This document shows positions 3,103 to 63,915 of a stretch of 64,000 nt of DNA, piece after piece. The notes under the pieces were generated by a model, which worked only from the letters and a program-made list of their open reading frames with translations, was not told where the DNA came from and did no database searches. The DNA lies in the NCBI GenBank assembly GCA_032718475.1, contig JAUCBJ010000012.1, forward strand, positions 5,673 to 69,672, read 5' to 3'. The position numbers were made by a program, and so were the translations under genes. The stretch is from Nemertoderma westbladi. Its lineage: Eukaryota; Animalia; Xenacoelomorpha. Every line of letters starts with the position of its first letter. Position 1 is the first letter of the stretch.

Positions 3103-3346
3103 GTAAGTTAACAACCAACATAATATATGTGTCAATTAAGTACATCACGTACTAGTACTACATATACTTTTGGTTCTATTTTGTGGTCCTGACATGCTCC
3201 AAAGATAGGTCGGCATTTAGTGGTAACATCCACCGAGGATTGACATTTCATTTAGTGACGGTAGTAGTATCCACTGAGTGGGCTGTGTAACAAGCCCTAT
3301 TTCATGACCTGATTAATCGTTTGTTGCCAATTTTCATTGTTTTCAG

Positions 3347-7650: not shown

Positions 7651-7852
7651 TTATCACTACTCACACTTACCACTACCGTATTACTCGGCCAAAATTACGA
7701 ACCATCAAGTGGGCCACATCCCTACCCATGGCATCTAGTCTCGAGGGATGGTTTATTTAATTATTTATTTTTATCTTGACAGCAATTTAATTTAATTTGT
7801 AACTTAAAAATGAAATATTCGACTCACTAAACCATGTTTTTTTTATTTGTAG

Positions 7853-36500: not shown

Positions 36501-39198
36501 TGTGTCTACTGTTGACGGTGACACAGAACCATTTGAAGTGTTATGGGGCGTCCTCCAAGGAGACACACTTGCACCATTCTTGTTCATTATTGTGGTTGAC
36601 TATGTTCTACGCATGTCCTTAGATCATCATAATGATGATGGGGTGATGATAACTCCACCTACTGGCTCCAGAAGTCGAGGAAATCCTGCCAAGTACCTAA
36701 CTGATCTAGACTTTGCTGATGACTAAGGAGTACTCTCAGAATCATTAGAGGGAGCCCAGCGGCTCCTCAGCTCATTAGAACATGCTGCTTCTAGTGTTGG
36801 TCTTTTTATTAACTCCAGAAAGACCAAAATTCTGACAGTTAACTTTGAAAGTCCTCAACAAGTCTCTGATCGGATGAGCATAAGCTCAAAGGATGGTATG
36901 CTTGAGCATGTGGACGACTTCTGTTACCTGGGATCATGGATCCGGAAGTCAGGTGAGGACCTTCGAATACGTAAGGGAAAGGCATGGGCAGCCTTGAATA
37001 GGCTTTCCAGGATTTGGAAGTCACCTAGAATTAATCGGAAACTTAAGGTCCGATTATTTAGAGCAGCAGTAGTTCCAGTACTCCTCTACGGGAGTCCATG
37101 CTGGGCTCTAACTGCTGAGGACACCAAATCTCTGGATGGCACATTCACAAGAATGCTACGCCGGGTACATTGTGTCAAGTACAATGCACACATCTCCAAC
37201 CAGACACTATATAACATTGGAGGTGTCTCATTGGTTCCCCCAAGCTTGACACTAGAACAAAATCGTCTCCGCTTTGCAGGACATTGCTTTCGCCGTGAGG
37301 ACCAGCCAGTGCATAATCTTGTACTTTGGCAGCCTCATGGAGTGAATAAGCATGGTGGACAGCCCATGACTTTCTTGAGACGCATCTTAAAGGACACTGG
37401 CCTTAAAGATGCGGATGATCTAGCAAATGTCATGGGTGATAGGGAGTTGTGGCGGCGCAATTTTGTTGACAAGCCGGCACAGCATTCTTAAAAATGCAGC
37501 TGCAATGCAGCATGCCGATCCTAGTCCTAGTTGATCCCATAAAACGAGTCCGGTAAAGGTCTAGCGCGTATGTTTACATCGTGTACCATGCGACGGACAA
37601 GATCCGCTCTATTGTCCGGAGGTTGAACGAGTGTACCATCTACACGAGCGGCTTCGATGGGTGGACGTTGCAACATGGGAGCGTCGGCGATAAGCTCTCT
37701 AGATCTTAGGTTGATATCAACCGGTTGGGGTTGTATCGTCGCAAAGAGTTTGTCTCCGAAATGGGGAACCATCGAGGGATGAAGGATGGTTTTAGAGTAG
37801 AGATCCGTCATAAGGATTTGAGCATCGGGTTGAGCTAAAGCTGCTTCTTCTCTCTCATCTAGTTCTATATGTCTCTCCTCGAGCTGATTTTCCTCCGCTT
37901 GTTGTTGTAGACGCTCATCTAGGAACTCTTGTAAAGAGTAGGTTCGTCCACGTTCGATGTCCTCTTAGAGATTTTGTATTTCTCTATCGAACTGGGGTAA
38001 AGCTAATTCCTTCACCGCTTGGACTTGTTGTTGCAATTTACGTTTCTCCAAACAATCGTAAGTTCCTTTTCCGATTTTCTGCCGAATAGCATCTAACGCG
38101 TTTCGTACGACGCTCTCTTCGACTTCTGTAACGGGTTGTATCGAGGTGAAGCCGGGACGGTTGTGTGGGTTAAATGGCGATTAGGTAGGGTTGGCGAATA
38201 TCTAGTGAGCCTACTACCGGAGTACCACCGATCAACTGTTCGGGTAACACTAGATCTTTGAACAGTGAGTACAGTTCAGGAGGATCCGTGATACTATTAG
38301 GATCAAGAGTCTGAGGTCTAACTGAGGAATGAGGAGGTCTGACCGAGTATTCCGGAACTCTGATCATTGGTTTGTTCAAGGATCGTTTGAGTCGAGCGAC
38401 CATAGGGGATACGTCGAACAGGTTTCGCTCGAAACTCCCATAAGTATATCGTGTAAAACTGTGTTTAGCGCAACGTCTCCGCGGATGTTTATGTCTTTCC
38501 GTTTGCTGATTGGGTCTAGGGCATTCGTCGCAGTAATACCAAAGACGCACGTCCTGCAGGGGAAACGCGGGTGATCGTTCTCCAGTTTTACAATATTCCT
38601 CCATCTGTTCGAAGCTATCTGGGACGACAGGTAGCGGTCGATCGGCGGTAAGATACATCATAGTGAAATAGAGTCGTTTGAGTTCTATCATAGGATCATG
38701 ATGTATACCTTGTGGATATCGAGTTTCGAGATTTTGTTGACTGGCAATAATGAGATATGTCTCTCTCAGGAATTCCAGATAATCGTTGAAGTCGCTGCGT
38801 TTATCCGGCTCTTCAACGTCTTCCCTTTCGAGTTTGTTTCGAATAGAGTTCTCGTGTTCTATTCTCGGTTTATCGTTCCGACTCCGCTGGGTATGATATT
38901 TAAATAAAACCATTTCCCTTTCGGTGTCTACATCGTCCGTATCGTGTAAATCGATAGGATGGCCAGTAGTTAAGAAGTCCATATACGTACCATTACGATG
39001 CGTATAGCGAGCGGTGAACTTTCTATAATCCAATTCACGCGTAAGTTGCTCCTGGGACATTGGCGGTTCGATATAACGACCATCATCCTCCGTAGTAGTT
39101 GGACCAGCGTCTCCGCGTATCAAGCTATCGACAAACGCTTGTAAAGGTAGAGTATATCGCTCCCTAATACCGAGATCATCTTCTATCAACTCAGTCAT
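33588..39198 (-). pseudogene. Accessory ORF of copy A (~1400 codons once the LINE is removed): unknown N-terminus, coiled region, DEDDy 3'-5' exonuclease (~35060-35760), CCHC zinc fingers (~34310-34525), basic C-terminal tail; frameshifted and LINE-interrupted
   Basis: ExoI VVTYDNEG; LP..VLEMLFNERILKIGSAVYGDL (ExoII); FVDTQL; SIGHLA; PL..SLAIYTIFE (ExoIII, D to E); CRLC..H..C, CAYC...H...CP, CHHCQLKGHASYNC; KKLRKRRPRKK. Confidence 0.75.
36169..37531 (+). mobile_element. 5'-truncated non-LTR retrotransposon (RTE-group-like RT) inserted antisense in the accessory ORF
   Basis: GFRKGR, FVDFFKAFDSV, GVLQGDTLAPFLF, DFADD then one in-frame stop, thumb YLGSWI, LLYGS..W; (CCTAGT)2 tail; possible TSD TGATC at 36164-36168 and 37532-37536. 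Confidence 0.9.
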
Positions 39199-40019
39199 AT
39201 CTGCTATGAGTTTATCAATATTATAATGAGTTTATATATTAGGCTAGCGGGCGTCGCTGCCTACCCCTCTTTTGCCCCCGGACAGTGCAAGATCCTCAGC
39301 GCCGATGTACCGTCGTCGCTGTGCTTTCGCCAACGATGTAGCTACACAACGACAACGATAACCGGCACAAGTCACTCCACTGTCCGTCCCAAAGGCTTAG
39401 ATGTACTTTAGGTTCTTTCTGGAGAGTTAGGGTTACTTTCACAATTGCGACTAGCTACTGTAAACACACTTTAGCAGTAACATTCACCTATGAACGCACA
39501 AATTCAACACAACTGCCATAAACTGTACACATTCGGGCCATTTGTCCGTTAGTCAGTACCTTCCAGAATGTCACTTTATTTATTATGTATCCTTGGATAC
39601 TAGCAGTGCGCTATTTATTCCCTATGCTATTCAATGGGGCAAGCCTTCTATTGTTCTTTTAACTCACTTCTAATTCTAGCGTGGTTGTTGCCATGGTGAC
39701 ATTATGGAAAGCTAGCGGTAGAATTAGGGTAATTCTCATGCATACAGATCTGGGATGCTATTTAATAGTAATTCTTTAATTGTCAATATCCTCTCTATAT
39801 ATGATTTTATGAATTTTATCGGCTATTGACTATATATTGGAGATTCTCGCACACAAATACACTTAATAGAGTGAATCTCCGCTCCCATGATCTATTAATT
39901 AATGGAATTTTGGGAATGTTATAAATTGTATAAAATGACAATTTATTAAATTCATTGAAATATCTGAATTTAAATTTATTCCCGTAAATTTTATTATTTA
40001 ATGTTAAATAGACACAATT

Positions 40020-40832: not shown

Positions 40833-41270
40833 CTAAGCTGGGGAGTCCCTAGATGTTTGTTGGATTAGGGAGGTGGTCGTGGGAAGAGTATCTTGCCTCC
40901 CATAGTTTCCGGAGAGTTCTCTGTCTCTTTCCAGTAAACATAAGCGACCAACTGGGCGATTGAGCTGCTGCGTCTCGAAGACAATTCCCGGTTTCTTGAA
41001 GTTACGTCGCATGACGACGAGTTCTACCGATCGCACCAAACCGTCATCCGAGATGTGAGTCTCGATGATACGACCTGTCTGCCACCGCTTACGTGGAAGA
41101 TCTACATCCAGAATAAGAACCATGTCTCCAGCGCTGACGTTTTCTTGCTGCGCAAACCACTTAGTTCGAAGTTGTAGCGTGGGCAGATAATGTTTTTCGA
41201 AATGGTCAGCGAAACGACGGGATAACAACTGCATGAGTTGCCAAGTTTGCCGGCAGTATTCGTCTCCGTC
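40833..41270 (-). pseudogene. C-terminal remnant of BEL pol (post-integrase, DUF5641-like), copy A
   Basis: F...F.KHYLPTLQLRTKW...GDMVLI.D..LPR.RW.TGRIIETH...DGLVRSVEL...RPV.RLCLL. Confidence 0.85.
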
Positions 41271-41279
41271 TGTGATTTC

Positions 41280-44200
41280 CGATTGTGGTAGTTAGGGTGA
41301 GGTTGCTGTCTGTGTCTTTTTCATACGTAAGTGCTCGATACACTGCGGTATTTATCATGTAACAGGATTCACCTTCGTCGGAGAATTCATCTCTATAGAA
41401 TCCTTCCATCTCAGAGCTTTGGTCAGTGTCGTTCACATCACTGAATTGGACATGTAGTTCGGAATCACTTACCTGACTCTGGCTGTTTCGCTCAAATTCA
41501 GTGTGCAACAAGATATGATGTTTCGCACCGCACTTTGCACACCTTGTGTCGGAGTAACAGGTTCGCCGTTGGTGTCCTTGTCTGAGGCAATTATAACACA
41601 ACCGCTTATCCCACATGACTTCCCGTCTCTCCGCTAATGATTTCTTCAGGAATTCATCACACGTATTCAAATGGTGGGTCCCGTCACATAGCGCACATTT
41701 CGGTTTGATGTTACTTACCTTATTTTGAATAACAGTGTGCACACTCTTTCTTTCTTCGGGCTTTCTCACCTGAATTCTCTTGGGAGACGTAGGAGGAGTT
41801 TTTCTTACCTGTTCTCTCCTGTCATTGGTTCGAGACTTGAATTTACTTACCTGTTCTTTAGGCGTTTTATTGACATAATAAGATCTTTCAGTGTCTTTCC
41901 CGCTATCCTCTCCTTGAGAAGTCTGGCTTTCGCCGTCGTCTGTATAACACACTGGTGTTACCTTTCTCCTAGAGATGGGTTTCTCACTTACCTTGTTTTC
42001 CGGTGTCTTCTCTCTGGACTGCTTTATGAGCTGTAATTTCACTTCGCCATCCAAGAATGACATGAGATCAGCCATGGTAGGGTCTCGTTGTTGTTGTTCC
42101 ATCATATATAACACTTTCTTGTCCCAGCGTGTACCTACTCCACCCTTCGGTAAAGTAGAAGCCACTGCTCTAATAACCATAGCACTCTGATACTCATGAG
42201 ACTTACCTAGCCAATCTAATTGTCTGCAGATCTCCTGAATCTCATCGGAAAACTCTATAATCCCGCTGCTAATAAACTTTCGGGGCGCTACCAACTTTGC
42301 ATACAAATACCCAGCTATGTTATTCCTATTACCATACCTGATGTTTAGTGTATCCCAAACTTGTCTTAATCCGTCTGGATGTCCAATAAACTTTAACGCC
42401 ATTAACTTGGGAGATCCTTCCAAGCACTCGATGAGGAATCTAAGTTTCTCTCCATTAGATAGCACAGAGTTCTGTATGTTATCTTTATAATATTCATTAA
42501 AAGGTAACCATTTCATCTCATCTCCATTGAACTTCACTATCTCTCCCACCTTTACCGCTTGGCGGGCTTCGGTTCTAGCCATTTGACGCGTAAAACTTTC
42601 TTGGGCCATCGTGTTATTTAATATCGAGTTATCGGTATATAAATTTCTTGGGTTATGATCAGGTCTATAGGGAATATCACTATCAACAGGTCTATAATTA
42701 CCCTTAATAGGGTTTACTATAGGAGTTTCTACTTCACTAGCAGTATAGATGCGTGTAGGCTCCACACCTTGCGCATGAAATACTTCAGACCTAACGGGTT
42801 GACATATTGTTACAGAGGGTGGTGATATACCCTTTTGTAAATTTACTAATTTCTCGCGTTCTAGCGCGATACTTTGCTGCACTTCTTGCAACTCTAACCT
42901 ACTTTCCTTTACGGTTCCCTTTAACTGTTGAACAGTCCCTTCTAACTCTCGGACCTGTAGGGAGGAGCGCACTCGATTCTCCTTCATCTCTCCGAGGAGA
43001 ATGTCCATCCCCCGCTGTCTCTCGTCTACCCAATCAACCGCCGAAGCAGGATCCGCCAACGTCGTAGCGGGCGGACGAGGGACTACAGGCGATATATCCT
43101 TTATATTTCGCTCGGAGTCCAGGACCGACACTGCTTCAGGGGCTGTTCCTCTAGGCACAGATAATTTGGTGCTGTGTAAAGGGAATTTAAAGGTGGGTTC
43201 TGGGAGCACAGGTGTCTCTATCACCGAAGGGGTGATTTCAAGAACAGGCCTAATTATTTCAGGCTCATCTACTATAGTAGGGAGTCTTTCTAGTTTAATT
43301 ATTTGGTCTGTGGGTTCTGTACTACCTAAATCTGTGTTAGTTAATTGCCTTCTAACAGCTGGGGGCAAATCAGGCAATTTGTGACGGTAAGATGTTCTTC
43401 TACGCCTACTTAGACGAGATCTATTTCCTCTGCCTTCAGGATCGGTGGTATCGCCTTCCTCAGATGATGTATAACCTTGTCTCTTGGGAGTAGATCTATT
43501 CATCATCTGCATATTACTAGCTGTTAACTGTTTACTGAAGTTGTCTTGCTTCTCTTGAAGATTTTCCAACTCTAGTTGGGTTGTCTCTTCAGATGCCCTC
43601 CGTTCTGCTTCTGCCACTGCTATTTTTCTTTCCGCTTCGGCCGCTGCCGCTTTTCTTGCTGCTTCTACTGCTGCAGCTGCCGCTTTTGCTTCTGCCGCTG
43701 CCGCTTTTGCCTCTGCTGCTGCCTCTGCCGCTTTTCTATCCGCTTCTGCCGCTGCCACTGCCGCTGCTGCTGTCTTTCTATCTTCTATACGTTTTTTCTT
43801 TACTTGTTCTTCTTGAACCTTAGCGATGCGGATGCTTTCATTGAATTTAGCTTGGTTCGCAGCTAACCTATCCACATCGATTGCGTCCAACACACGCTGG
43901 GCTCCTTCACTATTAGGGCTAAGCCCCTCTAGTCTTCTCCTCAACTCTTCATCTCCTACAAAACGTTGATAGTCCGACAGATAGATGTCAATGGCATCCC
44001 TCTTATGCGGCTTCTCTGCCGTCGCTTCACTTTCCACTTGGGAAAAAGTAGCGTCTGTTGATTCTCCATGGGTTGAGCGCTCATCCAGTTGGGCTTTCCA
44101 CTGAGTCGTTCCTTGCACCTGGAGGCTCACCTGTTGAAACCAAGTCTTTACGGCAACTTGCAACGACGTGTCTTGTCTTCTTTTAGAAGCCTCCTCAAAG

Positions 44201-44949
44201 GCCGATAAGATTAGCCTGATTCGTAGAATTCTTTCTCTAACTTGATAAAGCAGCTGTCCCTGCTCTTGAGGTCCTTGGGGTTGTTGAAACAGTTGTTTTT
44301 CTAATCACTCCATGGAGCTGAAGAATCCCTGTACGTATCCGGCTGCGGACCTCTTCCACACAGCTGGATCGATGGTTTCCTTGGTTACTCCCATCCTGTG
44401 TATATCTTCCCAGGCAGCTTCTGATAAATCAAACGGGAGTCCGGGTCCGGGGAAGTTCCATTGCGACTCGACAATAGACTTCAGTTCTTCCCTTGTGTAT
44501 CCCTCATAACTATCTTTAGTCGATCGCTTACTTCTCGCCCAATCGATCTGGTGTTCTTCCACCGCAATCAATAACCTAGTGAGTATGGCTGCAGGAAGGA
44601 TGAGAAGGGGATCCGAATAAACCGCATCCGTCATCTTTGCTCCGCGCTCGGGTGTCAGCTCTACAGTATCCTCACTACTGGAGCTGTCGGGCCGTTGAGA
44701 AATAAGTTCTTGGCTCGCGGGTTGTTGTTGTTCCGCTGCTTCTTGGTCCCGCTTGACCTGAGCTCTAGTGCCTATGACAGACCTACGGTGTTGGACCAGC
44801 CTAGGTTCTGATATTACTACTGGGGAAATGATCTTTCTTACAGTAGGAGGTGAGTTGAACTTCGGTCTAACACGTTCCACACTCCTGTCTGGGTCACATA
44901 AGGTTGTATCTAGGAGACTGTCTGACAGGTTTTGCTTTGTGTCAGACAT
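41280..44949 (-). pseudogene. BEL/Pao gag, copy A, with one premature TGA at 44305-44307
   Basis: KFNGDEMKWLPF...LSNGEKLRFL...L.G (DUF1759-like); CALCDGTHHLNTC, CYNCLRQGHQRRTC, CAKCGAKHHILLH; copy B has CGA where A has TGA. Confidence 0.9.
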
Positions 44950-47209
44950 GTTGGTTTGTACAGTTGAATGCCTACTGCTATATTACAGTTAAAGCAAGTT
45001 TAGTAATTCAGTATCAACTGTTAGCCTAGTAATTAATTACCGATACTGCTACTCAGTGTAGCGTGATATATATATAATATATTAGAATACCGGTATGCTT
45101 ATAGTATATATATAAGTATTATTACAGACTAGGTTTGTCACAGGATACCGGTATGTAATTCCAGCACAAATATATATAAATATATAATAGGCCTATCGTG
45201 AATACCGGTATGCAGCTTACACTTATAGTACATATAAGTATAATTATTAACTAGAATTAATTACAGAATACCGGTATGATTTCAGCCTAAATTTATATAA
45301 CTAAATATAATAAGCCTATCGTGAATACCGGTATGTCAATTATTTTAGAATAATTGAATTTCTGAATTTTTAGGGGTTACTTGGTTACTTTAACTTACTT
45401 TATTACCGTTATTTAAGCAGTAGTCCAACTGATATTTAGACCTAATTGTTGTATGGCAGGCCTACTATTTATAAATCGTTTGATTTGATTTATAATATAT
45501 ATATACCCGTTTAATGGGTTTTGTCAATATTTGAAATAAATGTTATTATTTCTGGGGGGAGTCACTACACAGAAGCTGTGCGCTCTCAGTGGAATGCTAC
45601 TTGTTGGACACTAAAACAAATAATTCTAATTTACCTAAGTTACTTAATACTACAAATTACATACAATTCGGGGTGAGATTACAATCTCTAAATAAACACA
45701 AAAAATTACACGTACGAATTTTTAGGGTAATTTTACAAGAAGTCTACAAACCAGCCTAACAAAGGGTTAGAAATCTGGTTATTACAACGGACAGAGTACT
45801 ACGGTATTTGAAAATAATAAGTAGTAGTAAATATACTGCGTTGTCCAGATAGAAAAATACCACCGTCTGACGACTTATAGCCGTATCGCTATAAGTACTA
45901 CGTTATGTATCACGGAGTGTTCCTACCTAGAAGTTAATTACCGCGGTCTACCAGAACCAACGTGCCTATTAACCACTTTACAACACAAATATACTGCCTA
46001 CACACTAATTGCCTTCGGAAAGCACTGTACACTAAACCCTAAATTAGGTACAAGTACTTATACAACAAATAATTAGTAGTTAAAATACTTGAACAGCTAA
46101 AAGAACCACGGTATCTGCCGGAGTGACCAAAGCACAAAATCTCCAGTCTTTACCTACGCCGAGCAGCCCTGATGTAGTACCGGGGTTAGTTTAACTATAA
46201 CAGTATGTATAACAAGCACAATTACTGTAGGAATAAACTTGGGGAATGAATGTTGCAAATAATCGCATAAACTCTGAATAATAAATATTACGCTACGCGT
46301 ACAGACTACTCAAACAAAATGCAGACCAAATACTGACAGACTACTATCAAGCCTAAACAAACTACGGTATATGCAGACTCCGAAATGGTTAGTTAGTATG
46401 CGTTCTAACCTAGTAGTACGACTTATTCTTTCAGAGGGGGTTTACCTCACAGCACTGGAAGCCCCTACATTCCCAACTGGCACTTTATCGGACATACACT
46501 CTACACACACCGAAATTTCCTCAGACCTAACAACAGCCAGACAACTATCCAGCCTACAAATTATCTAAATAAGAATTATACGCTACCTGTATAGACTACA
46601 CAAACAGAGTACAGACCAAACGCTGGCAGACTACTATCAAGCCTAAATAAACTACAGTATATGCAGACTCCGAAATGATTAGTTAGTATGCGTTCTAACC
46701 TAGTAGTACGACTTATTCTTTCAAAGGGGGTTTACCTCACAGCACTTGAAGCCCCTACGTTCCTAACTAGCACTTTATCGGACAGATGCTCTACACACAC
46801 TGCAATCTGTTCAGACTTAACAACAGTTTGACAACAGTCTAGCCTACAAATTGTCTGTACAATCTGAGCAGGCTTACACGCCTTCTGCTCAATATTGGCC
46901 TACAAATAAATAAAACTTGACAGAAATAAGTAAAATCTCAATAAAAAACCAGGGCAGGGCGGCCGTCCCTGATTAATTATTAAGGCCTACCGGTATATAA
47001 TTATCAAAATCGAATAATACTGCTGTACCTGTACTGCTGTAGGTACCGGTCCGGGTGGTTAGGTAGTCAGGCCTACTGGGTACCGGTTGCCGGTACTTCA
47101 GCTTTATTGCCTACTGCAATACAGAAGCAATATCCGTTATTGTTCTTACCAGAACAATATTAAACTGTATTTATTGCCTACCCTGCAATCCGAACTTGAT
47201 ATCCGTTAT

Positions 47210-48389
47210 TGTTCGCGCTTTCAGACCTTTAGCAGTTTAACCTGCCAAATTTGGATGTCTTTTAGATGATAGATAGTCTTTAGCCTATGACAAGTATTTG
47301 ATACACTACATTAGCCGAATCCAGTCTATGCGCGATCATTCACCCGCTGGATATACCCGGGAGACTGGATTCGGAAGCCTAACCGTATTGCGGGGTAGGC
47401 CTACTGTATTATTCGACTGATCGTAATATATATAATCTCTGACAAATATTATTCACTTTCGGGAAATATTAACAGTTCCTTTAGGACGTGGCGCTTTAAA
47501 AATATAAACAGAGTTATGACTTAAACTAGACACAACGGGATGGCTATAGATTCACGTATATGGCGCATTCTTTAGGAGATGCTTCGTTATCAATCACGAT
47601 CATACACAATACTGCACAATGCTGCACACTAATCTGCCGACCTTCACTAATTTTAGTCACATATAAGGAGAACAACAGACAATACGTGTAGGGCCTATAA
47701 AATAGCATTAGATTCACTTCAAACCACTTAATGTAAGTCGCAATCGTTATATGTATCCGGTCTCTCTAACCTTTACTATATCAAGAAGATTGGGGTGTCT
47801 GATTGTTTATCAGTATTCCAAATATAATATTCCATCAACAAATATAATGAATAACCGACAGCAAAAGCAGTAATGTTAAGGTATGTTATGAGTGAGTGAG
47901 TAAGTTAAGTTATGTTATGTATGTATGATCAGTGAGTTTGATATGATAACGGATATACGTTCTATAATTAAGCCTACTAATGTTGAACTAAAGACTGAAA
48001 CACGGAGGTTCCACGCCGGTGTTGTAGGCTGTGGACAAAATCACAATACTGACTCACTTCCCTAGTTTCTATATACAATCTCCAACACAGAGGCAAAAAA
48101 CGCTCTGATTGGTCGACCGAACAAAGAGAGAACAAAGAACAAAGAGATGTTCCACGTGGCAATATCAGCTGTTAGCCGTCGTCATGGTATCTACACTGTT
48201 TCAAGAGGATCCGGCGTATTGAGTCATAGAATTGCTAATCATGTCCGCTAAAGTACACATACAGAAGAAATGGCTTTTATGTCCTCTAAAACAACAGTGC
48301 AGTAAGGACACGGCCTTTTATGCCTGCTAAACCAACTACAGAGTACTTTACGGGGAAAATAACCGGCTAATTACGCAAAAGCATTTACA
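47210..48389 (-). repeat. 5' LTR of copy A
   Basis: TGTAAATGC...GCGCGAACA; CCAAT, TATATAGAAA and initiator-like TCAGT (48052-48048) on the element strand. Confidence 0.95.
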
Positions 48390-48394
48390 AAGTC

Positions 48395-49950
48395 TACGGG
48401 CAAAGTGCGTAAGTAATCTGACAGAGTCAAGCCTGCAGATTGCTGCTGCTCTGTTCTCAAAACTAAACCGTTGATCCTGGGACGAACGAAGTAGCCAGCG
48501 GGCAGATGTGCTAGCGCTCTAGAGCTGGTCAGCCAAAGCTAAGTCCTCAGCGGGAGCCTTACCTACAAACCCAAATACCAAGTAACCTCTGCAGCGAGGA
48601 ACACGGTACTGGATCAAACAAAGTAGGTCCGATACCGAAGAGCAGAACCTAGATTAGCTGCCGAGGCTGCCATTTACTAAGGCCTGTCGTTATTGACTGA
48701 CTTTTCCATCGGAATGTGGCCCTTTTTAAACTCGGTATTCGGGGTCAATGTGAAGTTGACCCCTAATTATCACCTAGTCATAATCTGTCTTTCCTATGCA
48801 CTGATTTACTTTGAAATATGTAAAATATGATTAATATTGGGTTTGGTATCGTATCATCTCACCTCGAATCCATAAGGATTTATGGGGAAAGTGAAGATGC
48901 CGGCTCGAATATCGTAAGTTCATTCTCATTAGTTGCTGCCTTTTCTACCCTCCACTTCAGTTTCGAATGGAGACTCGCGAGATACTCAAGCTCTTCACAG
49001 CGAGATATCTGGTCCATGATTGTTATGTCAGTCCAACACTCAAAAACACAATGATTTCTGTTCTTCCCAAGATGTATATACACAAACATACATATAAACT
49101 TATATACAGAAAAATACAGTACTTTTAGTCGTTTCGTTATGCTAAAAATACTCTGAAAAAATAAAATTAAATGTTATAGAGCAAGTCACGGGTTATGAAA
49201 AACGTCGTAATAAACTTGGTTCAGCTTCATGCTATTGGAACTTGGCGATAGTGCAGAACACCAGGATACCGTCTGAGTCCAAACAGTGGTGGGACCAATT
49301 GGACGGAAATGGTTAGCGGTTACTTTGCCCTCAAAACTATACCGTCGATCCTGGCGAGCCTGGGATGAACTGTATATCCAGCGGACAGAGTGCTCAAGCA
49401 CTACCGAAACTGACAGAGTCGAAGCCTATAGGGACTGGACTGCTTAGTTTGCCCCCAAAACTAAATAGTGGATCCTGAGACAAACTAAGTAGCAAGTGGA
49501 CAGAGTGCGCGAGCGCTCTGGGGGTATTCCAGAGATCTCAATCCTGGGCAGTAACGTGTAACATCTTACCTTCCCAGCTACTGTGAACCCGCTAAGGCCG
49601 GCCTGGGAAGAAAGAAGTCCAATACCTTGGAGTGGAGCTCACTTTAAGGCTAGTCAGCGAAAACTCAGTCCTTGGCGGTAACGTCTTACCTTCCCAGCTA
49701 CCACGAACTCGCTAAGGCCGGCCTGGGAAGAAAGAAGTCCAATACCTTGGAGCAGAGCCTAGTTTAGCTGCCGAGGCGGCCAACTATGAAGGCTGATTTT
49801 TGGGACTGACTTTTCCATCCAAATGTGGCCCCTTTTAAACCCGGTGTGGGGTCAATAAGAAGTTGACCCCGAATTATCACCTAAACACAGTTTGTCTTTA
49901 TTGTGCAGTGATTTTACGTTAAACCCATGTAAATATAATTAATATTGGTT
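48395..49950 (-). repeat. Two diverged tandem promoter/leader units (X 49105-49950; X' 48395-48840 continuing at 31780-32301 across copy A)
   Basis: Shared blocks ggggtcaa...ttgacccc, gactgacttttccatc, tagctgccgaggc, gtcgtaataaacttggt.cagcttca, agtcgtttcgttatgctaaaa. Confidence 0.75.
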
Positions 49951-50262
49951 GTTAGACTGACCAATAACCGATTCGATTACTAATGAATGGCAATAGCAAT
50001 AGTCAATTATTCCTTTGTTAATAACTGGGTGGGATTAATAGGTGGGTGAGGTTGGCGTACTGAGGGGCCAATGAGAGAAAGGAGGGAGGTTGTACAGGGA
50101 CCTCCTTCATTGGATAGCAGTAATTTGTAGGGGAGTAGCCGGCAATATTGGTTGGAATTGTGGGTGAGGGCAGTTAAGGATGTCTGGGATGGAAATATGT
50201 TGTAATATTGGATATTAATGGAATGAAATATTACGGTGGGAAAGGGAATAATTGCGTAGTGA

Positions 50263-50660
50263 TTATTTCATTTTTAAATCAGGATCATGATGGAGTGTAT
50301 TTTTGTATGTTTGCCTACGGAGGCGCAAAAAATCGATTACAGTAAAGTGTTCAACCACATCCTCTTCTTTCTTTGACTTATCATTACGGCTGAACCACCG
50401 TTGCATCTCAGTACGGACAATGACTTCCTCATCCAAGTCATACGTGTACTCTCGGGCCACCTCTAGCAATGATTCCATTAAGTTGACCTTTGCATAGGCA
50501 GGGAGTAGTTCATGAAGTGTAAGCTCACTCGGTACAGTAGAAAAGCGGTATGACAGCTCAGTGTGCATACTGTCTATGAATGGAATAAATACTGACCGTC
50601 GTAATACTCCTCAGGAGTTGATCATCAACATTAGACCGATAAATTTGTTGCTTCGTACGG
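50263..50660 (-). CDS. Unidentified ORF fragment, cut off upstream by the copy B insertion
   Basis: 101-aa ORF with protein-like composition; no recognised motif. Confidence 0.3.
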
Positions 50661-50671
50661 CGTGGGATGGC

Positions 50672-51840
50672 TGTAAAAGCTTTTGCGGAATTAGCTGGTT
50701 ATTTTCCCCGCAAAGTACTCTGTAGTTGGTTTAACGGACATAAAAAGCCGTTTCCTTACTGTACCGGTGTTTTAGAGAACATAAAAAGCCATTTCTTCTG
50801 TATGTGTACTTTAGCGGACATAACTAGCAATTTTATGTCGCAATACGCTAAAATCCTCTTGACACAGTGTAGTTACTATGATGACGGCTAACAGCTGATC
50901 TGTACACGTGGAGCTTTTCCTTTGTTCTCTGTTCTTTCTTTGTTCGGTCGACCAATCAGAGCGTTTTTTGACTCTGTGTTGGAGATTGTATACAGAAACT
51001 CATGCAATTGAGTCAGTTGGTGTATTTTGTCCACAGCCAGAAGACCGGCTTTGGAATCTCTGTGTTTTCAGGCTTTAGCAAAACATTAGTAGGCTTGATC
51101 ATAGAACGTATAACCGTTATCTAAACAATTCATACCTAATCAAACAAAACAATCAAAACACCGCATTTTTACTGCTATTTACTGTCGGTTATTAATTATA
51201 TCAGTTGATGGAATATTATTATATTGGGATAATATCGATCAATAATCAGAAACCCCAATCTTCTTGATATACTGAAGGTTAGAGAGACTGGTTACATATA
51301 ACAATTGCGACTTACATTATATTGGTTTTGGAGTGAATCTAATGCTATTTCATAGGCACTACATGAGTCAGTGGTTGTTCTCTTTATATGTGACTAAAAT
51401 TAGTGAAGGTCGGCAGATCGGTGTGCAGCATTGTGCGGTAGTGTGCATGATTGTGACTGATAACGAAGCATCTCCTAAAGAATGCGCTTTATACATGAAT
51501 CCATAGCCATCCCGTTGTGTCTAGTGTAAGTCATAACTCTGTTTACATATTTAGAGCGCCATGTCCTAAAGGAACTGTTAATATTTCCCAAAAGTGAATA
51601 ATATTGGTCAGAGATTATATATTAACAATCAGTCGAATAATACAGTAGGCCTACACCGCAATAAGGTCAAGGCTTCCGAATCCAGTCTCCCGGGTATATG
51701 CAGCGGGTGAATGGTCGCGCATAGACTGGCTTCGGCTAATGTAGTGTATCAAATACTCGTCATAGGCTAAAGTCGATTTATAATCTAGAAGACATCTAAA
51801 TTTGGCAGGTTAAACTGCTAAAGGTCTGAAAGCGCGAACA
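50672..51840 (+). repeat. 5' LTR of copy B (1169 bp)
   Basis: Homologous to the copy A LTRs; CCAAT ~50952, TATA-like ~50989, TCAGTT 51013-51018. Confidence 0.93.
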
Positions 51841-51851
51841 ATAACGGTTAT
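51841..51851 (+). promoter_or_regulatory. Non-tRNA primer-binding site ATAACGGTTAT, complementary to LTR 51110-51120
   Basis: Immediately follows the LTR end; exact reverse complement of ATAACCGTTAT; no TGG tRNA-type PBS. Confidence 0.7.
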
Positions 51852-52934
51852 TGCTTCTGTATTGCAGTAGGCAATAAAGCTGAAGTACCGGTCAACCGGT
51901 ACCCAGTAGGCCTGACTACCTAACCACCCGGACCGGTACTTACAGCAGTACAGGTACAGCAGTATTATTCGATTTTGATAATTATATACCGGTAGGCCTT
52001 AATAATTAATCAGGGACTGCAGCCCTGGTTTTTTATTGGGATTTTACTTATTTCTGTCAGTTTTATTTATTTGTAGCCCAATATTGAGCAGAAGACGTGT
52101 AAGCCTGCCCAGATTGTACAGATAATTTGTAGGCTGGACTGTTGTCTGACTGTTGTTAAGTCTGAAGAGATTGCGGTGTGTGTAGAGTGTATGTCCGATA
52201 AAGTACTAGTTAGGAAAGTAGGGGCTTCCAGTGCTGTGAGGTAAATCCCCTCGAAAGAATAAGTCGTACTACTCGGTTAGAACGCATACTAACTAACCAT
52301 TTCGGAGTCTGCATATACTGTAGTTTGTTTAGGCTTGATAGTAGTCTACCAGCGTTTTGTCTGTATTTTGTATGTGTAGTCTGTACGGGTAGTGTAATAT
52401 TTCTTATTTAGATAATTTGTAGGCTGGATTGTTGTCTGGCTGTTGTTAGGTCTGAAGAGATTGCAGTGTGTGTAGAGTGTATGTCCGATAAAGTGCCAGT
52501 TAGGAACGTAGGGGCTTCCAGTGCTGTGAGGTAAACCCCCTCGAAATAATAAGTCGTACTACTCGGTTAGAACGCATACTAACTAACCATTTCGGAGTCT
52601 GGATATACCATAGTTTGTTTAGGCTTGATAGTAGTCTGTCAGCATTTGGTCTGCATTTTGTTTGAGTAGTCTGTACGCGTAGCGTAATATTTATTATTCA
52701 GAGTTTATGCGATTATTCGCAACATTCATATCCCCAAGTTTATTCCTACAGTAATTGTGCTTGTTATATATACCGTTATAGTTAAATTAACCCCGGTACT
52801 ACATCAGGGCTGCTTGGCGTAGGTAAAGACTGGTGATTTTGTGCCCCGGTCACTCCAGCAGATGCCGTGGTTCTTTTAGCTGTACAAGTATTTCTAACTG
52901 CTAGTTATTTGTTGTATAAGTACTTGTACCTAAT

Positions 52935-54640
52935 CCCAGTTAAACATGAGTATGTGTTTCATATATGGTTGCCATAAATAATTCGACATGTGATACATAT
53001 ATGTAAATGTTACAGTGTTGTCAAATGTGATCCATATGTGGAATGTTCACATGTGATACACATATGTTTTTTATGTGACAAGTGCGACAAAAAGAGTAAA
53101 AATTTAAACTGAGACCGACCAATCACTGGTGTGGGTCTGCATTTCCTATAGAGAGGTGGGGCGGGGGGGGGGGGGGGGGGTAGCCTACCTCAGTACCTTA
53201 TCCTATCCAATCCCTACACCCTATCCTACGGCCCTACACCTACCCTATACATTTAGAGAAGGAAGCATCGGAGTATATATGAAAATATTTAATCCATAGT
53301 GATATGAGAGTATCCTTAATAGATTTTGGTTATGATCCGTAAATTCGTATTCTATTAGTTAGATTTAATTAAGTTATCTAATTTCCAGCTATAATAGATT
53401 ATTCATTTTGATAAATCTTCGAAAATTAATTAATTCTAAGATCATATAATTGCTCATATGATATTTTATATCTAATTTTAAGACATCTTTTCCATACAAC
53501 ATATATATACCACATATGAAACATATGTTCAATTTTTTAACGGGATAAGAACTGCAATAGGCCTGCCTACCTTACGGATGGTATAGTGCATGTATGTTAT
53601 CTGTCTATGTCTGTACCCCTTACTGATACTTAGCAGCGCAGATGACAATGCACAACCACAACCTGACAAGTGAAAACCACCACACAGCCATACATATGTT
53701 TGTCTAATTCTGTTAATACAGCACTGTACAATGCACATGCACAGCACAATGTGCATAGTGCAAGGCAGAAAGCAGGCAAGTCACACACTGCATCACTGAA
53801 CAATTGAGTGGACTATGACTGTATGATAAGCGGTAGGCTTATGCAACGCATTATGCTGTTATGGGTAAAATATAAAATAATTTGCGATTCACTAGCTAAA
53901 CTACAAGCGACACGACGTGGTTAAGAAGAAAGATTGCAGGATCAGACTATGAAATGCCTATCATTTTAAGAATGTGTCCCACCACCAGCCCTCAAATGCA
54001 ATAAACAAAACAATTGGACGATCGACTATGGTTACTTCAATTTAGTGTCCATACAGCCTTCACAGATCATTTAAACCTTATAGCAGGCCTATGTATTGAT
54101 TATACATTATATGGTTAAATAGCCGGTACTTTGAAAATACAGTATAACAAAAAATATAGATTCAACGTATTATACTGCTGATTAAAACGATATTTGTTCT
54201 TAATGCAAAAAGCTGAGTAGTGACATCAACAAATTCCGCATCCCCCCTCGCTATTCTTTTCTGTACATGTATTACTGTAAGGCCTGTATTACCATAAGGC
54301 AAACATGTGTGCAACATATAAAATCCATGAACTGGATTACACAATTACGAATTGAATAGTTTATGGATTTAAATTTAACTCGGAGTCTTGGCTATGGCTA
54401 TTTCACATATGCTCGACATATATTATTCACATGCGCATTCTCACACATTTATTTATGATAAATTCATATGTGCAACATATAAATACCATAAATGGCGATA
54501 CACACATTCTAAGTGTATGTATCACCGCATGCGTGACATGTATTATTCATACATGAGCATAAAAACCCAATTTCCAGACACACCTATTCCATACAACATA
54601 TATATACCACATATGAAACATAAGTTCATGTTTAACTGGG
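52935..54640. mobile_element. Non-autonomous CMC/EnSpm-like DNA transposon nested in the copy B leader
   Basis: TIR CCCAGTTAAACATGA / TCATGTTTAACTGGG; 2-bp TSD AT confirmed by the empty site ctaatttaggg in copies A and C; subterminal acatatg repeats. Confidence 0.85.
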
Positions 54641-55748
54641 ATTTAGGGTTTAGTGTACAGTGCTTTCCGAAGGTAATTAGTGTGTAGGCAGTATATTTGT
54701 GTTGTAAAGTGGTTAATAGGCACGTTGGTTCTGGTAGACCGCGGTAATTAACTTCTAGGTAGGAACACTCCGTGATACATAACGTAGTACTTATAGCGAT
54801 ACGGCTATAAGTCGTCAGACGGTGGTATTTTTTCTATCTGGACAACGCAGTATATTTACTACTGCTTTGTTATTTTCAAATACCGTATTACCTTGTCCAT
54901 TGTAATAACCAGATATTCTAACCCTTTGTTAGGCTGGTTTGTAGACTTCTTGTAAAATTACCCTAAAAATTCGTACGTGTAATTTTTTGTGTTTATTTAG
55001 AGATTGTAATCTCACCCCGAATTTTACGTAATTTGTAGTATTAAGTAACTTAGGTAAATTAGAATTATTTGTTTTAGTGTCCAACCAGTAGCACTTCACT
55101 GAGAGCGCACAGCTTCTGTGTAGTGACTCCTTCCCAGAAATAATAACATTTATTTCAAACATTGACAAAACCCATTAAACGGGTACACAAATATTATAAA
55201 TCAACTCAAACCGATTTATAAAATAGTAGGCCTGTCATACATCAATTAGGTCTTAATGTCAGTTGGACTACTGCTTAAATAACAGTAATAAGGTAAAGTA
55301 AAGTAACCAAGTAACCCCTAAAATTCAGAAATTCAATTATTCTAAAATAATTGATATACCGGTATTTACGATAGGCTTATTATATTTATTTCTATAAATT
55401 TAGGCTGAAAATTATACCGGTATTCTGTAGTTAATTCTAGTCTGTAATAACACTTATATATATACTATAAGTGTAATCTGTATACCGGTATTCACGATAG
55501 GCCTATTATATATTTATATATATTTGTGCTGAAATTTATATATACCGGTATTCTGTGACAAACCTAGTCTGTAATAATACTTATATATACACTATAAGTG
55601 TATACCGGTATTCTAATATATTGTATATATATTACGTTACATAGAGTAACAATATCGGTAATTAATTACTAGGCTAACAGTTGATACTGAATTACTAGAC
55701 TTGCTTTAACTGTAATATAGCAGTAGGCATTCAACTGTACAAACAAAC

Positions 55749-58700
55749 ATGTCTGACACAAAGCAAAACCTGTCAGACAGTCTCCTAGATACAACCATCT
55801 GTGACCCAGACAGGAGCGTGGAACGTGTGAGACCGAAGTTCAATTCACCTCCTACTGTAAGAAAGATCATCCCTCCAGTGGTAATATCAGACCCTAGGCT
55901 AGTCCAACACCGTAGGTCTATCATAGGCACGCAAGCTCAAGTCAAGCGAGACCAAGAAGCAGCGGAACAGCAGCAACACTCGAGCCGAGAACTTATTTCT
56001 CAGCGGCCCGACAGCTCCAGTAGTGCGGATACTGTAGAGCTTACACCCGAGCGCGGAGCTAAGATGGCAGATGCGGTTTATTCGGATCCCCTTCTCATCC
56101 TTCCTGCAGCCGTACTCACTAGGGTATTGATTGCGGTGGAGGAACACCAGATTGATTGGGCGAGAAGTAAGCGATCGACCAAGGATAGTTATGCGGGATA
56201 CACAAGGGAAGAACTGAAGTCTATTGTTGAGTCGCAATGGAACTTCCCCAGACCCCGACTCCCGTTTGACTTATCAGAAGCTGCCTGGGAAGACATACAC
56301 AGGATGGGAGTGACCAAAGAAACCAGCGATCCAGCTGTGTGGAAGAGGTCAGCAGCAGGATACGTACAGGGATTCTTCAGCTCTATGGAGCGATTAAAGG
56401 AACAACTGTTTCGACAACCCCAAGGACCTCAAGCGCAGGGAGAGCTGCTTTATCAAGTTAGAGAAAGAATTCTACGAATCAGACTAATCTTATCGGCCTT
56501 TGAGGAGGCTTCTAAAAGAAGACAAGACACGTCGTTGCAAGTTGCCGTAAAGACTTGGTTTCAGCGGGTGAGTCTCCAAGTTCAAGGAACTGCCCAGTGG
56601 AAATCTCAGTTGGCTGAGCGCTCAACCCATGGAGAATCAACAGACGCTACATTTTCCCAAGTGGAAAGTGAAGCGACGGCAGAGAAACCGCATAAGAGGG
56701 ATGCTATTGACATCTATCTGTCGGACTATCAACGTTTTGTAGGAGATGAAAGTTGAGGAGAAGGCTAGATGGACTTAGCCCTAATAGTGAAGGAGCCAAG
56801 CTTGTGTTGGACGCAATAGATGCGGATATGATAGCTGCAAACCAAGCTAAATTTGATGAACGCCTCCGCATCGCTAGATCCAAGAAGAACAAGTAAAGAA
56901 AAAACATATAGAAGACAGAAAGACAGCGGCAGTGGCAGCAGCAGTGGCAGCGGCAGAAGCGGAAAGAAAGGTGGTAGAGGTGGAAAGAAAAGCGGCAGCG
57001 GCAGCAGCCGAAGTGGAAAGAAAAGCGGCAGTAGCAGCGGCAGAAGCGGATAGAAAAGCGGCAGAAATAGAAAGAAAGGCAGTGGCAGAAGCAGAACGGA
57101 GAGCGTCTGAAGAGATCGCCCAACTAGAGTTGGAAAATATTCAAGAGAATCAAGACTGCATAAATAAACAGTTAACAGCTAGTCAAATGCAGATGATGAG
57201 TCGATCTACTCCCAAAAGGCAGGGATTTACATCATCTGATGAAGGCGATACCACCGATCCTGAAGGTGGAGGAAATAGATCTCATCTAAGTAGGCGTAGA
57301 AGAATGTCCCACCGTCAGAAATTGCCTGATTTGCCCCCAGCTGTTAGAAGGCAACTAACTAACACAGACTTAGGTAGTACAGAACCCACAGACCAAATAA
57401 TTAAAATAGAAAGACTCCCTACTATAGTAGATGAGCCTGAAATAATTAGGCCTGTTCTCGAAGCCACCCCTTCGGTGATAGAGACACCTGTACTCCCTGA
57501 ACCTGCCTCTGAATTCCCTCTGCACAGCACTAAGCTACCTGTGCCCCACAGAACCACCCCTGAAAATGTTCATGTCCTGGACTCCGAGCGAAATATTAAT
57601 GATTTGTCGCCCGTTGTCCCTCGTCCGCCCGCTACAACGTTGGCGCCTCCCGCTTCGGCGGTCGAGTGGGTAGATGAGGGACGACGGGAGATGGGTCTCC
57701 TGCTCGGGCAGCTGAGGGAACACCGTTCTTGCTCCTCTCAGCAGGTCCAGGAGATGGGGGAGACTGTGCAGCAGTTAAAGGGAACAATTAGAGAGGGTAG
57801 GTTAGAGTTGCAAGAAGTGCAGCAAAGTATTGCGTTAGAACGCGATAAACTAGTAAATCTCCAAAAGGGTATACCACCACCCCCTGTAACAATGTGTCAA
57901 CCTGTTAGGTCTGAAGTATTTCATGCGCAAGGTGTGGAGCCTACACGCATCTATACTGCTAGTGAAGTGGAAACTCCTATAGTAAACCCTATTAAGGGTA
58001 ATTATAAACCTATTGATAATGATATTCCATATAGACCTGATCATAATCCGAGAAATTTATATACCGATAACTCGATATTAAATAACACGATGGCCCAAGA
58101 AAGTTTTACGCGTCAAATGGCTAGAACCGAAGCCCGTCAAGCGGTAAAGGTGGGAGAGATCGTCAAGTTCAATGGAGATGAGATGAAATGGTTACCTTTT
58201 AATGAATATTACAAAGATAACATACAGAACTCTGTGCTATCTAACGGAGAGAAACTTAGATTCCTCATCGAGTGCTTGGAAGGATCTCCCAAGTTAATGG
58301 CGTTAAAGTTTATTGGACATCCAGATGGATTAAGACAAGTTTGGGATACCCTAAACATCAGGTATGGTAATAGGAATAACATAGCTAGGTATTTGTATGC
58401 AAAATTGGTAGCGCCCCGAAAGTTCATTAGCAGCGGGATTATAGAGTTTTCCGATGAGATTCAAGAGATCTGTAGACAATTAGATTGGCTAGGTAAGTCT
58501 CATGAATATCAGAGTTCTATGGTTATTGGAGCCGTGGCCTCTACTTTACCTAAGGGTGGAGTAGGTACACGCTGGGATAAGAAAGTGTTATATATGATGG
58601 AACAACAACGACGAGACCCTACCATGGCTGATCTCATGTCATTCTTAGATGGAGAAGTGAAATTACAGCTCCTAAAGCAGTCCAGAGAGAAGACACCGGA

Positions 58701-60738
58701 AAACAAGGTAAGTGAGAAACCCGTTTCTAGGAGAAGGGTAATACCAGTGTGTTATACAGACGACGGCGAAAGCCAGGCTTCTCAAGAGGAAGACAGCGGG
58801 AAAGACACTGAAAGATCTTACTATGACAACAAAGCGCCTAAGGACGTAAGTAAATTCAAGTCTCGAACCAATGACAGGAGAGAACAGGTAAGAAAAACTC
58901 CTCCTACGTCTCCTAAGAGAATTCATGTAAGAAAGCCCGAGGAAAGAACGAGTGTGCACAACGTTACCCAGAGTAAGGTAAGTAACATCAAACCAAAATG
59001 TGTGCTGTGCGACGGGCCCCACCGTTTAAGTGTGTGTGATGAATTCATGAGGAAATCATTAAAGGATAGACGTGAAGTCATGTGGGATAAGCGGTTGTGT
59101 TATAATTGCCTCAGACGAGGACATCAACGGCGAACCTGTTACTCCGACGCAAGGTGTGCAAAGTGCGGCGCAAAACATCATATCTTGTTGCACACTGAAT
59201 TCGAACGAAACAGCCCGAGTCAGGTAAGGGAGTCCGAACTACATGTCCAATTCAGTGATGTGAACGACACTGACCAAAGTTCTGAGATGGAAGGATTCTA
59301 TACGGACGAATTCTCCGACGAAGATGAATCCTGTTACCTGATAAATACCGCAGTGTATCGAGCACTTACGTATGAAAAAGACACAGACAGCGAGCTCCCC
59401 CTAACTACTTCTGACCGACAACCATCTTGGAAAGCACCAACTTCCAATGTAGGAATCCGAGAATTTCCAGTAGTGCAGTTAAGGGTCCATGGACCTAAAA
59501 GGAGTTATATAGTGAACGCCCTCCTTGACTCCGGTAGCACAGGAACATTCATCGACAAAGAACTAGCCGAAGACATCTTTGCTGGACAACCCAAGTTCCG
59601 AACTAAGTTAAACATGTCAGGAATTATGCAGGTTTGGAAATCTACAGTAATAGCTGATTATTATGTAGGTGCGTTGTCCACCCCCCAGGATGAACTAGGA
59701 GAACATAGTATAAGGTCAGTAAAAATGGTGGCGATAAAGAACTTCGCTACCAGCCAAGTGGTACCTTATAACTGGAATGAGGACGATTCCACCCAGCAGC
59801 TTAATATACCCAGATTCAACACAGATTACCCCGGAGTGCAAATACTCATCGGCCAAAATGCGCATGAAGCGCTTGAGACATTAGAGAAACGGCCTGCTCA
59901 ACCGCAACCATTACAAGTCTATGCGGGAAGAACTAGAGTAGGTTGGTACATTACTGGTCCTTCACGTAGAACTCTAATGGAAAGATTACCAAAAGAACAG
60001 GTATATCAATTAAGTGAATGGGAAGTGGAGAGCAGTGAAGTTGACGACCCAACTGAGGGAACACCATACTCCTCAGATAATGATGATATTAACTCCAATG
60101 TAGATCAATGGAGACATTGCCCCGAGACGATTAATCTGGCCGACATCGCTTCCAGAGGAGCAACTCCTCAAGAACTGACAGATACTCCAGACTGGTTAGG
60201 TGGACCCGACTTCCTAAGTAAAGAAGATGAATGGCCTCCCCATCTTACCACGGCTGAGATTAGACAAGCCAGGGGAGCGGAGAAAGTCAAACCTAAAACC
60301 CGGACGAGTAAATCAAGGTTATTTAAACCCGTGATAGATCTGTCTGTACTACACATTGCCAGGGACGACGCTGTGGATCTGAACTCCCCCACCGCGAACC
60401 GATCTGTTGTGGAGATCAGAGAGAGAGACTGGAGATCTGGAATACCAGACGTCTCGCCGGGACTCTCACCTCTCCTGCCGGGAGCGATGGACCACTATAG
60501 ATCCTGGAATCGGCTTTGTAAGGCCGTCGTGTATTTGAAGCGATGTTTCTATCGTCACTATTCCAGGACGAAGAGGAAACCTGGAATTGTCTTCGAGATA
60601 CAGCAGCTCAATCGCCCAGTTGGTCGTTTATGTTTACTGGAAAGAGACAGAGAACTCTCCGGAAACTATGGAAGGCAAGATACTCTTCCCACGACCACCT
60701 CCCTAATCCAACAAACATCTAGGGACTCCCCAACTTAA
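55749..60738 (+). pseudogene. BEL/Pao gag-protease fused in frame to RNase H-end and pol C-terminal remnants (RT and IN deleted); frameshifts ~56750-56900
   Basis: Gag as in copy A; aspartic protease ALLDSGSTGTFI and ILIG; QWRHCP...NLADIASRG...W..GPDFL; no RT or DDE integrase core visible. Confidence 0.9.
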
Positions 60739-63765: not shown

Positions 63766-63915
63766 CTGTTTAGAGTTATTTTTATATTTTAGAAACTGTG
63801 ATTTTTTATATTTTATAGAATTAAATCCCATTTTCAGGGAGCGGTGTAAAAGCTTTTGCGGAATTAGCTGGTTATTTTCCCCGCAAAGTACTCTGTAGTT
63901 GGTTTAACGGACATA

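Follow-up and report, generated by a model that had tools for sequence, protein, structure and literature searches.

In three copies (A, B and C) of a BEL/Pao-derived retrotransposon family from the xenacoelomorph Nemertoderma westbladi, the 11 nt that immediately follow the 5' LTR are perfectly complementary to an 11-mer within the element's own LTR. All three copies lie in one 64,000-nt stretch of DNA (contig JAUCBJ010000012.1, hereafter the window). The primer-binding site (PBS) feature is real and probably reflects self-priming in BEL/Pao with a seemingly internal primer. That the primer derives in some way from the element itself is judged likely. The particular reading preferred here, in which an element-derived RNA would start at an initiator-like TCAGT motif, be cut behind the LTR 11-mer and prime the minus strand, is given a probability of roughly 0.55. 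The sites concerned are as follows.

50672-51840 (+), copy B 5' LTR, 1169 bp, TG...CA
51110-51120 (+), copy B partner 11-mer, complement of the PBS and predicted 3' end of the primer
51841-51851 (+), copy B PBS, directly after the LTR, without TGG
63836-63915 (+), copy B purine tract and start of the 3' LTR, the first 71 bp of which (63845-63915) are followed by unrelated DNA
47210-48389 (-), copy A 5' LTR, 1180 bp
47946-47956 (-), copy A partner 11-mer, complement of the PBS
47199-47209 (-), copy A PBS (unit 1), complement of the LTR 11-mer
47130-47140 (-), copy A second PBS copy, 69 nt downstream of unit 1 and likewise preceded by GAACA
32330-33509 (-), copy A 3' LTR, 8 mismatches in 1180 against the 5' LTR
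1690-2870 (-), copy C 5' LTR, with a U3 (2540-2870) unlike that of A and B beyond its first ~40 nt and homology resuming at TCAGT (2539)
2430-2440 (-), copy C partner 11-mer, complement of the PBS
1679-1689 (-), copy C PBS, complement of the LTR 11-mer
1610-1620 (-), copy C second PBS copy, 69 nt downstream of the first

The initial annotation of the window had placed the LTR, PBS and partner sites correctly in all three copies, and its report of perfect 11-nt pairing without a TGG-type tRNA PBS is borne out: the pairing is exact in 3/3 copies and TGG is not found in the first 8 nt after any of the three LTRs. It had overlooked the second PBS copy of A and C, the 3' LTR of A and the loss of RT. 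The complement begins at LTR+1 and is exactly 11 nt long in each copy, with no 12-nt match; each LTR contains the reverse complement once when 8, 9, 10 or 11 nt are taken from LTR+1, and never when 12 are taken. In dinucleotide-shuffled LTRs the 11-mer was found in 3, 12 and 6 of 10,000 shuffles for the three copies. As the copies are kin, the match in A, B and C has one origin, not three. The partner starts 94-97 nt past the A of TCAGT, in agreement with the distance of about 95-105 nt first proposed, and about 720-740 nt separate it from the PBS.

It could be argued that the complement is incidental, a near-palindromic motif that occurs twice, with the changes in B being separate palindrome-perfecting events. 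The 11-mers of B are indeed near-palindromes that differ by one base, the PBS can form a predicted local hairpin of -4.5 kcal/mol, and the relatedness of the copies means that the match arose once. Nor are such matches unique, since a second 11-nt complement between LTR and leader lies further on, 11 nt being reached at 2/975 leader starts in B and at 3/975 in A and C. Against this, the match falls exactly at LTR+1, which is 1 of the 975 leader starts examined, and recurs in only 3-12 of 10,000 shuffles; the sites of A and C are exact complements yet show 3 mismatches if read as direct repeats; conservation of the family stops at the 3' end of the 11-mer (see below); and the element would be left without any primer. 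An incidental match is therefore considered very improbable.

The pairing had been described as supported by covariation. Position 51848 of the PBS and its mirror position 51113 of the partner do both differ in B from A and C, so the paired change itself is real. The description is overstated nonetheless: only 1 of the 11 pairs is affected, the three copies record a single event, and each of the two changes in B also perfects a palindrome, which makes palindrome correction an alternative source. With 56 B-private changes in 807 LTR columns, a match at the mirror site by chance has a probability of ~0.023 given one PBS change; in 185 leader columns there are only 2 B-private changes, one of them 51848. 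In the standard LTR cycle, plus-strand synthesis copies the primer into the PBS (excerpts of PMC7175516). If the same holds here, a change in the 11-mer would pass to the new PBS, and rewriting of the PBS by templating from the primer would account for both changes in B with no need for two separate mutations. Another allele of the partner, in which A replaces G at the position equivalent to 47951, is present in 8 contigs from 4/4 DNA runs and would keep pairing with the PBS through G.U; among the 40 differences listed, out of 331 in one DNA run, none falls at either 11-mer.

Pairing in B had also been said to extend beyond the 11 nt. All three extra helices are present there, yet 65/300 shuffles equal the flank duplex, so that the extended pairing in B is not significant; in A and C the helices fall out of register. 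At the first PBS unit the extended pairing is equalled by 271 (A) and 29 (C) of 300 shuffles, and at the second unit by 9/300 (A) and 12/300 (C), which is at most a weak hint. In A (47130-47209) and C (1610-1689) the LTR-end/PBS unit has undergone a 69-nt tandem duplication, hence the two units; B has a single unit, as do a few contigs from the DNA runs, and the second PBS is partly buried in a predicted hairpin.

Copy A is a complete element of 16 kb, with two 1180-bp LTRs and a flanking 5-bp target duplication, and the end of the LTR is thereby fixed independently. At the outer edge of its 3' LTR it carries the following.

32307-32329 (-), extra 23 bp after the 3' LTR: the first 7 nt of the PBS, then the final 16 nt of the LTR repeated
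32302-32306 (+), with its twin at 48390-48394: the 5-bp target-site duplication, outside the extra 23 bp

Since the 7 PBS nt lie inside the target duplication, the PBS site was copied during reverse transcription, which indicates that priming occurs there. The simplest cause would be copying of an incompletely removed primer, which left PBS letters on the cDNA end, followed by slip-back. The remnant marks the priming site and is compatible with several candidate primer RNAs. The letters at the 3' LTR show that PBS unit 1, not unit 2, was used in A despite the presence of the second PBS.

One such candidate is a host small RNA, a tRNA fragment or other, in which case the LTR 11-mer would be a structural or regulatory decoy. 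The tRNA anticodon loop follows the rule of U33 and a purine at position 37, and the complement, if taken as a tRNA half that ends in the anticodon loop, would break it. The PBS is also without TGG, and a host primer would hold the PBS constant, whereas that of B has changed jointly with its partner. In favour of a host primer, members of the Belpaoviridae, whose replication is poorly understood, are described in the ICTV profile as tRNA-primed through an 18-nt PBS for host tRNA-Arg or tRNA-Gly (PMC8742986), and half-tRNA primers are known in copia lineages (excerpts of PMC6317226); no 18-nt PBS for the 3' end of either tRNA is present in the three copies, all of which lack TGG. The exchange of U3 in copy C, described next, also has the ordinary pattern left by an uncut template. 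Overall, priming by a host RNA is regarded as unlikely, and the preferred reading remains priming by an RNA of the element.

The start of that RNA would be set by promoter-like motifs in the LTR, in the neighbourhood of which three features matter.

50952-51017 (+), copy B promoter-like set: CCAAT 50952, TATA-like 50989, initiator-like TCAGT 51013; predicted U3/R border and start
48112 (CCAAT), 48075 (TATA-like) and 48052 (TCAGT) (-), copy A promoter-like set, matching that of B
51121-51170, end approximate (+), hypervariable simple-repeat block of copy B, directly 3' of the 11-mer

Copy C, which runs off the start of the window, has a U3 only 43% identical to that of A (176 differences in 309 columns), with homology back at TCAGT. 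Considered with the CCAAT and TATA-like motifs that precede TCAGT in A and B, the swap indicates that the U3/R border is likely at TCAGT, which would place the primer site 94-97 nt inside R. No canonical poly(A) signal (AATAAA or ATTAAA) occurs in any of the three LTRs, so that R past the cut, which priming in cis needs, remains presumed.

The DNA runs bear on where the conserved part of R ends. Contig depth, compared over 369 contigs from 4 DNA runs and 3 samples, one of which may be the source of the window, rises 8- to 110-fold across the 11-mer border, between 47940-47943 and 47944-47947, in 4/4 runs. The same trough at that border is seen in a longer stretch of one DNA run, and loose ends at 47942-47945 that run into diverse sequence account for 8 of the 24 rows listed. 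The depth jump and the loose ends indicate that family conservation ends at the predicted 3' end of the primer, 1-2 nt past it. The family is abundant and diverse in these runs, with 10,607 contigs matched in one of them. Among the 7 sequencing runs listed as carrying it there was no RNA run, which says nothing about its expression. Less favourable is the segment between start and primer (51015-51109 in B, 47957-48050 in A), in which 24/97 positions differ between A and B, as against 39/336 in U3 and 67/656 in the LTR after the primer (p 1.7e-4 for start-to-primer versus the rest of R-U5). This high divergence is unexpected and counts against the best reading. For the same segment a 15-bp hairpin is predicted; across the 3 sequences its changes are one-sided in 4 cases and two-sided in 0, which is uninformative.

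A rival reading is a start like that of Tf1, in which the 11-mer would serve as a second start site and form the very beginning of the competent RNA, while a different transcript would begin at TCAGT. The complement is exactly 11 nt, as in Tf1, the hypervariable block opens right after the 11-mer, and in Tf2 alternative start sites make competent or incompetent RNA (excerpts of PMC5341516). Such a start is nevertheless thought quite unlikely, since CCAAT, the TATA-like motif and TCAGT align ~95 nt upstream of the 11-mer, the U3 swap of copy C stops at TCAGT and not at the 11-mer, and no TATA-like motif was found ~30 nt ahead of the 11-mer.

The preferred start at TCAGT was also considered in predicted RNA folds, which contain a long-range stem between U5 and the leader.

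51633-51643 (+), LTR arm of the U5-leader stem in copy B, given by the second 11-nt complement and the predicted fold
51962-51972 (+), leader arm of the same stem, on the same grounds

This stem, in which the LTR pairs with the leader from ~207 nt before the LTR end, is predicted at P 0.88-1.0 in 3/3 copies; its 11-nt arms are identical in all three and therefore without covariation. It encloses the PBS and is predicted to leave most of it unpaired in A and part of it in B and C. The stem crosses the primer-PBS helix, so that the two are incompatible in a nested fold of one uncut RNA. Nested folding from TCAGT yields the 11-bp helix in copy B alone, and there only when 30-100 nt of leader are included (P 0.6-0.97 and 0.2-0.58). 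For B with longer leaders, as for A and C, its probability is about 0, an absence that is partly expected because of the crossing stem.

Taken together, a possible course of events can be outlined. Transcription would start at TCAGT, as the promoter motifs and the U3 swap of C suggest, and the RNA would be packaged with the reverse transcriptase (RT) of an autonomous helper, A and B being without RT and RNase H. The U5-leader stem, complementary in sequence and predicted in folding, would hold the PBS in a loop, and the 11-mer would pair with the PBS, to which it is an exact complement. By analogy with Tf1, the RNA would then be cut behind the 11-mer, most likely by RNase H, to give a primer of ~105 nt. 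The template of this primer may be the molecule it came from or the other RNA of the dimer, the latter being slightly favoured: a U3 swap exactly at the start site implies an uncut template, with strong-stop DNA reaching the start, which a cis cut at +105 would prevent, and it thus favours priming in trans or by a host RNA over a cis cut. The proposal that the family primes itself from an internal site is consistent with the data and has gained indirect new support, while the start, the cut and the junction are still deduced. No precedent for an internal cut was found in the literature examined.

The assignment to BEL/Pao, also made at the outset, rests on the coding regions of A and B, the genes of copy C falling beyond the start of the window.

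55716-60738 (+), copy B coding region, two frames: gag (DUF1759, zinc knuckles), protease, short post-RNase H remnant
40833-44982 (-), copy A coding region: gag (DUF1759), integrase C-terminal remnant (DUF5641)
33588-39231 (-), extra 3' ORFs of copy A (353, 144, 520 and 381 aa), mostly deleted in B
36214-37491 (+), non-LTR RT fragment that splits the extra ORFs of A, RVT_1 E 1e-11

DUF1759 is matched at E 4e-11 and 8e-11 and DUF5641 at E 3e-21, and of 10 proteins homologous to the gag-PR region, 9 are BEL polyproteins that carry PF05380. Matches to a BEL polyprotein profile are collinear, at 17-685 and 1244-1315 for B and at 133-493 and 1722-1813 for A, and neither copy matches at the profile positions of RT (~899-957) and RNase H (~1134). 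The coding region of B accordingly has no RT or RNase H, and that of A lacks protease, RT and RNase H. The LTRs are of BEL/Pao type (1169-1181 bp, TG...CA, a 5-bp duplication in A and purine tracts in A and B), and the Gag, protease and integrase-side domains are BEL-type and follow the order gag-PR-(RT-RH)-IN. Gag, protease, the BEL-type post-RNase H motif and the DUF5641 tail identify BEL/Pao ancestry, and the family is filed as BEL/Pao-derived, high-copy and defective in A and B. Lacking RT and RNase H, both copies are non-autonomous and their priming would need a helper; no autonomous helper was seen. The leader is very long, about 3.9 kb in all three copies, and includes a two-copy tandem repeat of ~290 bp (52120-52702 in B, 46273-46856 in A and 768-1340 in C). 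A tRNA-like or otherwise known RNA was also sought in the element, with no Rfam matches in 45000-56000 and no tRNA genes in the window.

Among the extra 3' ORFs of A, that of 520 aa (34639-36201, -) has 3'-5' exonuclease-like motifs by eye, and that of 381 aa (33588-34733, -) has zinc knuckles; an inverted repeat at 36171-36359 adjoins the non-LTR RT fragment. A single homologue, P0129 (E 3e-6), unites both ORF parts in one chain and has a sub-threshold match to a 3'-5' exonuclease (E 0.2). The exonuclease identity of the 520-aa ORF is tentative: the ORF itself gave no Pfam or PDB match, PDB sequence searches returning zinc knuckles or noise, its structure predictions reached pLDDT values of only 28 and 31, and the homologue search found no relative beyond P0129.

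Searches for related elements elsewhere yielded little. All 11 matches to the LTR-end pattern, at 10 metagenome loci and 1 viral locus, were rejected as chance, being without further homology, and scans of viral contigs for BEL proteins gave 139 and 49 candidates, none of which was a relative. Among genome contigs, 2/36 were relatives: L012, which has no LTR, and L013. In L013, an unrelated BEL element, a strong splice donor at 359 and an acceptor at 827 after the LTR start form a junction that is a 12-nt complement of 898-909, ~25 nt before the gag ATG (1/5,000 shuffles); its LTR end is not fixed, as the contig end cuts the 3' LTR. A splice-built primer was sought in the A/B/C family too and rejected, no GT/GC-AG junction spanning a complement of at least 11 nt; the splice-junction rows returned were artefacts, with donors within the first 14 nt of the LTR. 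One run presumed to be RNA gave no splice-type joint, at a coverage too low for any conclusion.

These observations bear on a further alternative, in which the 3' end of the primer is made by another process, either exonuclease trimming of a short LTR transcript or a splicing step, with priming in trans. The exonuclease-like motifs in the 520-aa ORF of A, the sub-threshold match of P0129 and the 12-nt complement built ahead of gag in L013 would fit it. The exonuclease call is weak, B is without the 520-aa ORF, the 11-mer is not followed by GT, and none of the splice junctions tried in the LTRs of this family yields the complement; the alternative is accordingly held to be scarcely credible. 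A wider picture, put forward as a tentative possibility, would have a BEL/Pao branch drop tRNA priming in favour of a capped R RNA of ~105 nt, made by an internal cut, capable of acting in trans and rewriting the PBS in each cycle, with the primer assembled by splicing in relatives and an exonuclease that may shape its 3' end.

The surroundings of the copies deserve brief mention. A host exon (2939-3103, +) with a GKAP domain (PF03359, E 5e-16) lies ~70 bp from the LTR of C and identifies an animal locus; a DLGAP-type gene may harbour A, B and C in its introns. Satellite DNA occupies 21713-23299 and 3501-7651, in arrays built of 23-bp and 34-bp units, and a 10-nt word common to the 23-bp unit and the LTR-end/PBS junction is probably due to chance. 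Fold-back (MITE-like) inverted repeats are present at 17034-17715 and 25740-26274.

A Cer element of the BEL group in Caenorhabditis elegans may encode its own tRNA-like primer, for which the literature search gave no support. In Tf1 studies a U5 stem (U5-IR) has reportedly been found near the PBS, as has leftover primer on the cDNA end, and the U5-leader stem and the PBS letters on the cDNA end seen here echo those reports. Self-priming has been described for Tf1 and Tf2 of Schizosaccharomyces pombe, Tj1, Tf1/sushi and Tcn1, where an 11-nt PBS by the LTR complements the element's own R (excerpts of PMC7175516, PMC4600332, PMC5341516 and PMC6317226). The present family likewise lacks a tRNA PBS and has instead a PBS of 11 nt that abuts the LTR and can pair with R, a length and position that match the 11-base primer of Tf1. 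It differs in that the proteins of A and B are BEL-type and not those of Ty3/gypsy chromoviruses, that the PBS is doubled in A and C, that A and B have no RT, and that the primer is predicted ~95 nt inside the RNA, the Tf1 primer being nt 1-11 of the mRNA; Tf1 is said to need the first mRNA nucleotides (excerpts of PMC5445492). By analogy, then, the A/B/C family would work like Tf1 without belonging to the Tf1 group.

The family resembles the Belpaoviridae in its TG...CA LTRs within the 0.2-1.2 kb range, purine tract, DUF1759 gag with zinc knuckles, protease, BEL-type post-RNase H motif and DUF5641 tail, and departs from them not only in its PBS but in the deletion of RT and RNase H (A and B) and in the 16-kb length of A with its extra 3' ORFs. 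A self-complementary PBS outside Tf1/sushi is a trait held in common with the TAR lineage of plant Ty1/copia elements (Houba, Osr-1), for which self-priming is a prediction from a PBS-LTR complement of at least 10 bp (excerpts of PMC6317226), and that prediction suggests that the trait arose more than once. In fungal GalEa copia elements a palindromic Conserved Hairpin Site replaces the tRNA PBS after the LTR; a palindromic site right after the LTR is thus common to both, but the LTR complement present here is one that the available portion of the source did not find in GalEa (PMC5445492). The bdelloid elements Juno and Vesta carry a DEDDy-type ORF3 for which a role in 3'-end processing of element RNA has been suggested (excerpts of PMC5408684); both they and copy A have an extra 3' ORF with 3'-5' exonuclease-like motifs, although Juno and Vesta are not BEL/Pao and the assignment here is tentative.

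No report of a self-priming BEL/Pao element was found in a literature search in which subscription journals were thinly covered and the slashed spelling was partly missed. The literature examined, in part as excerpts, placed self-priming only in the Tf1/sushi/Tcn1 gypsy elements and the TAR copia lineage. BEL priming is not addressed in the accessible parts of PMC3601003, PMC5443660, PMC8220671 and PMC12786077, and primer, PBS and tRNA go unmentioned in the main text of PMC3118150, although supplements and Repbase/GyDB entries may list BEL PBSs.

If the reading is correct, BEL/Pao would be the third LTR superfamily with self-priming, and dependence on host tRNA would be gone, together with a target for tRNA-fragment silencing. 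The internal primer would require an RNA cut not described for Tf1, and the predicted RNA ends are exact, with a start at TCAGT and a 3' end behind the 11-mer. Furthermore, annotation tools that seek tRNA PBSs would overlook such elements.
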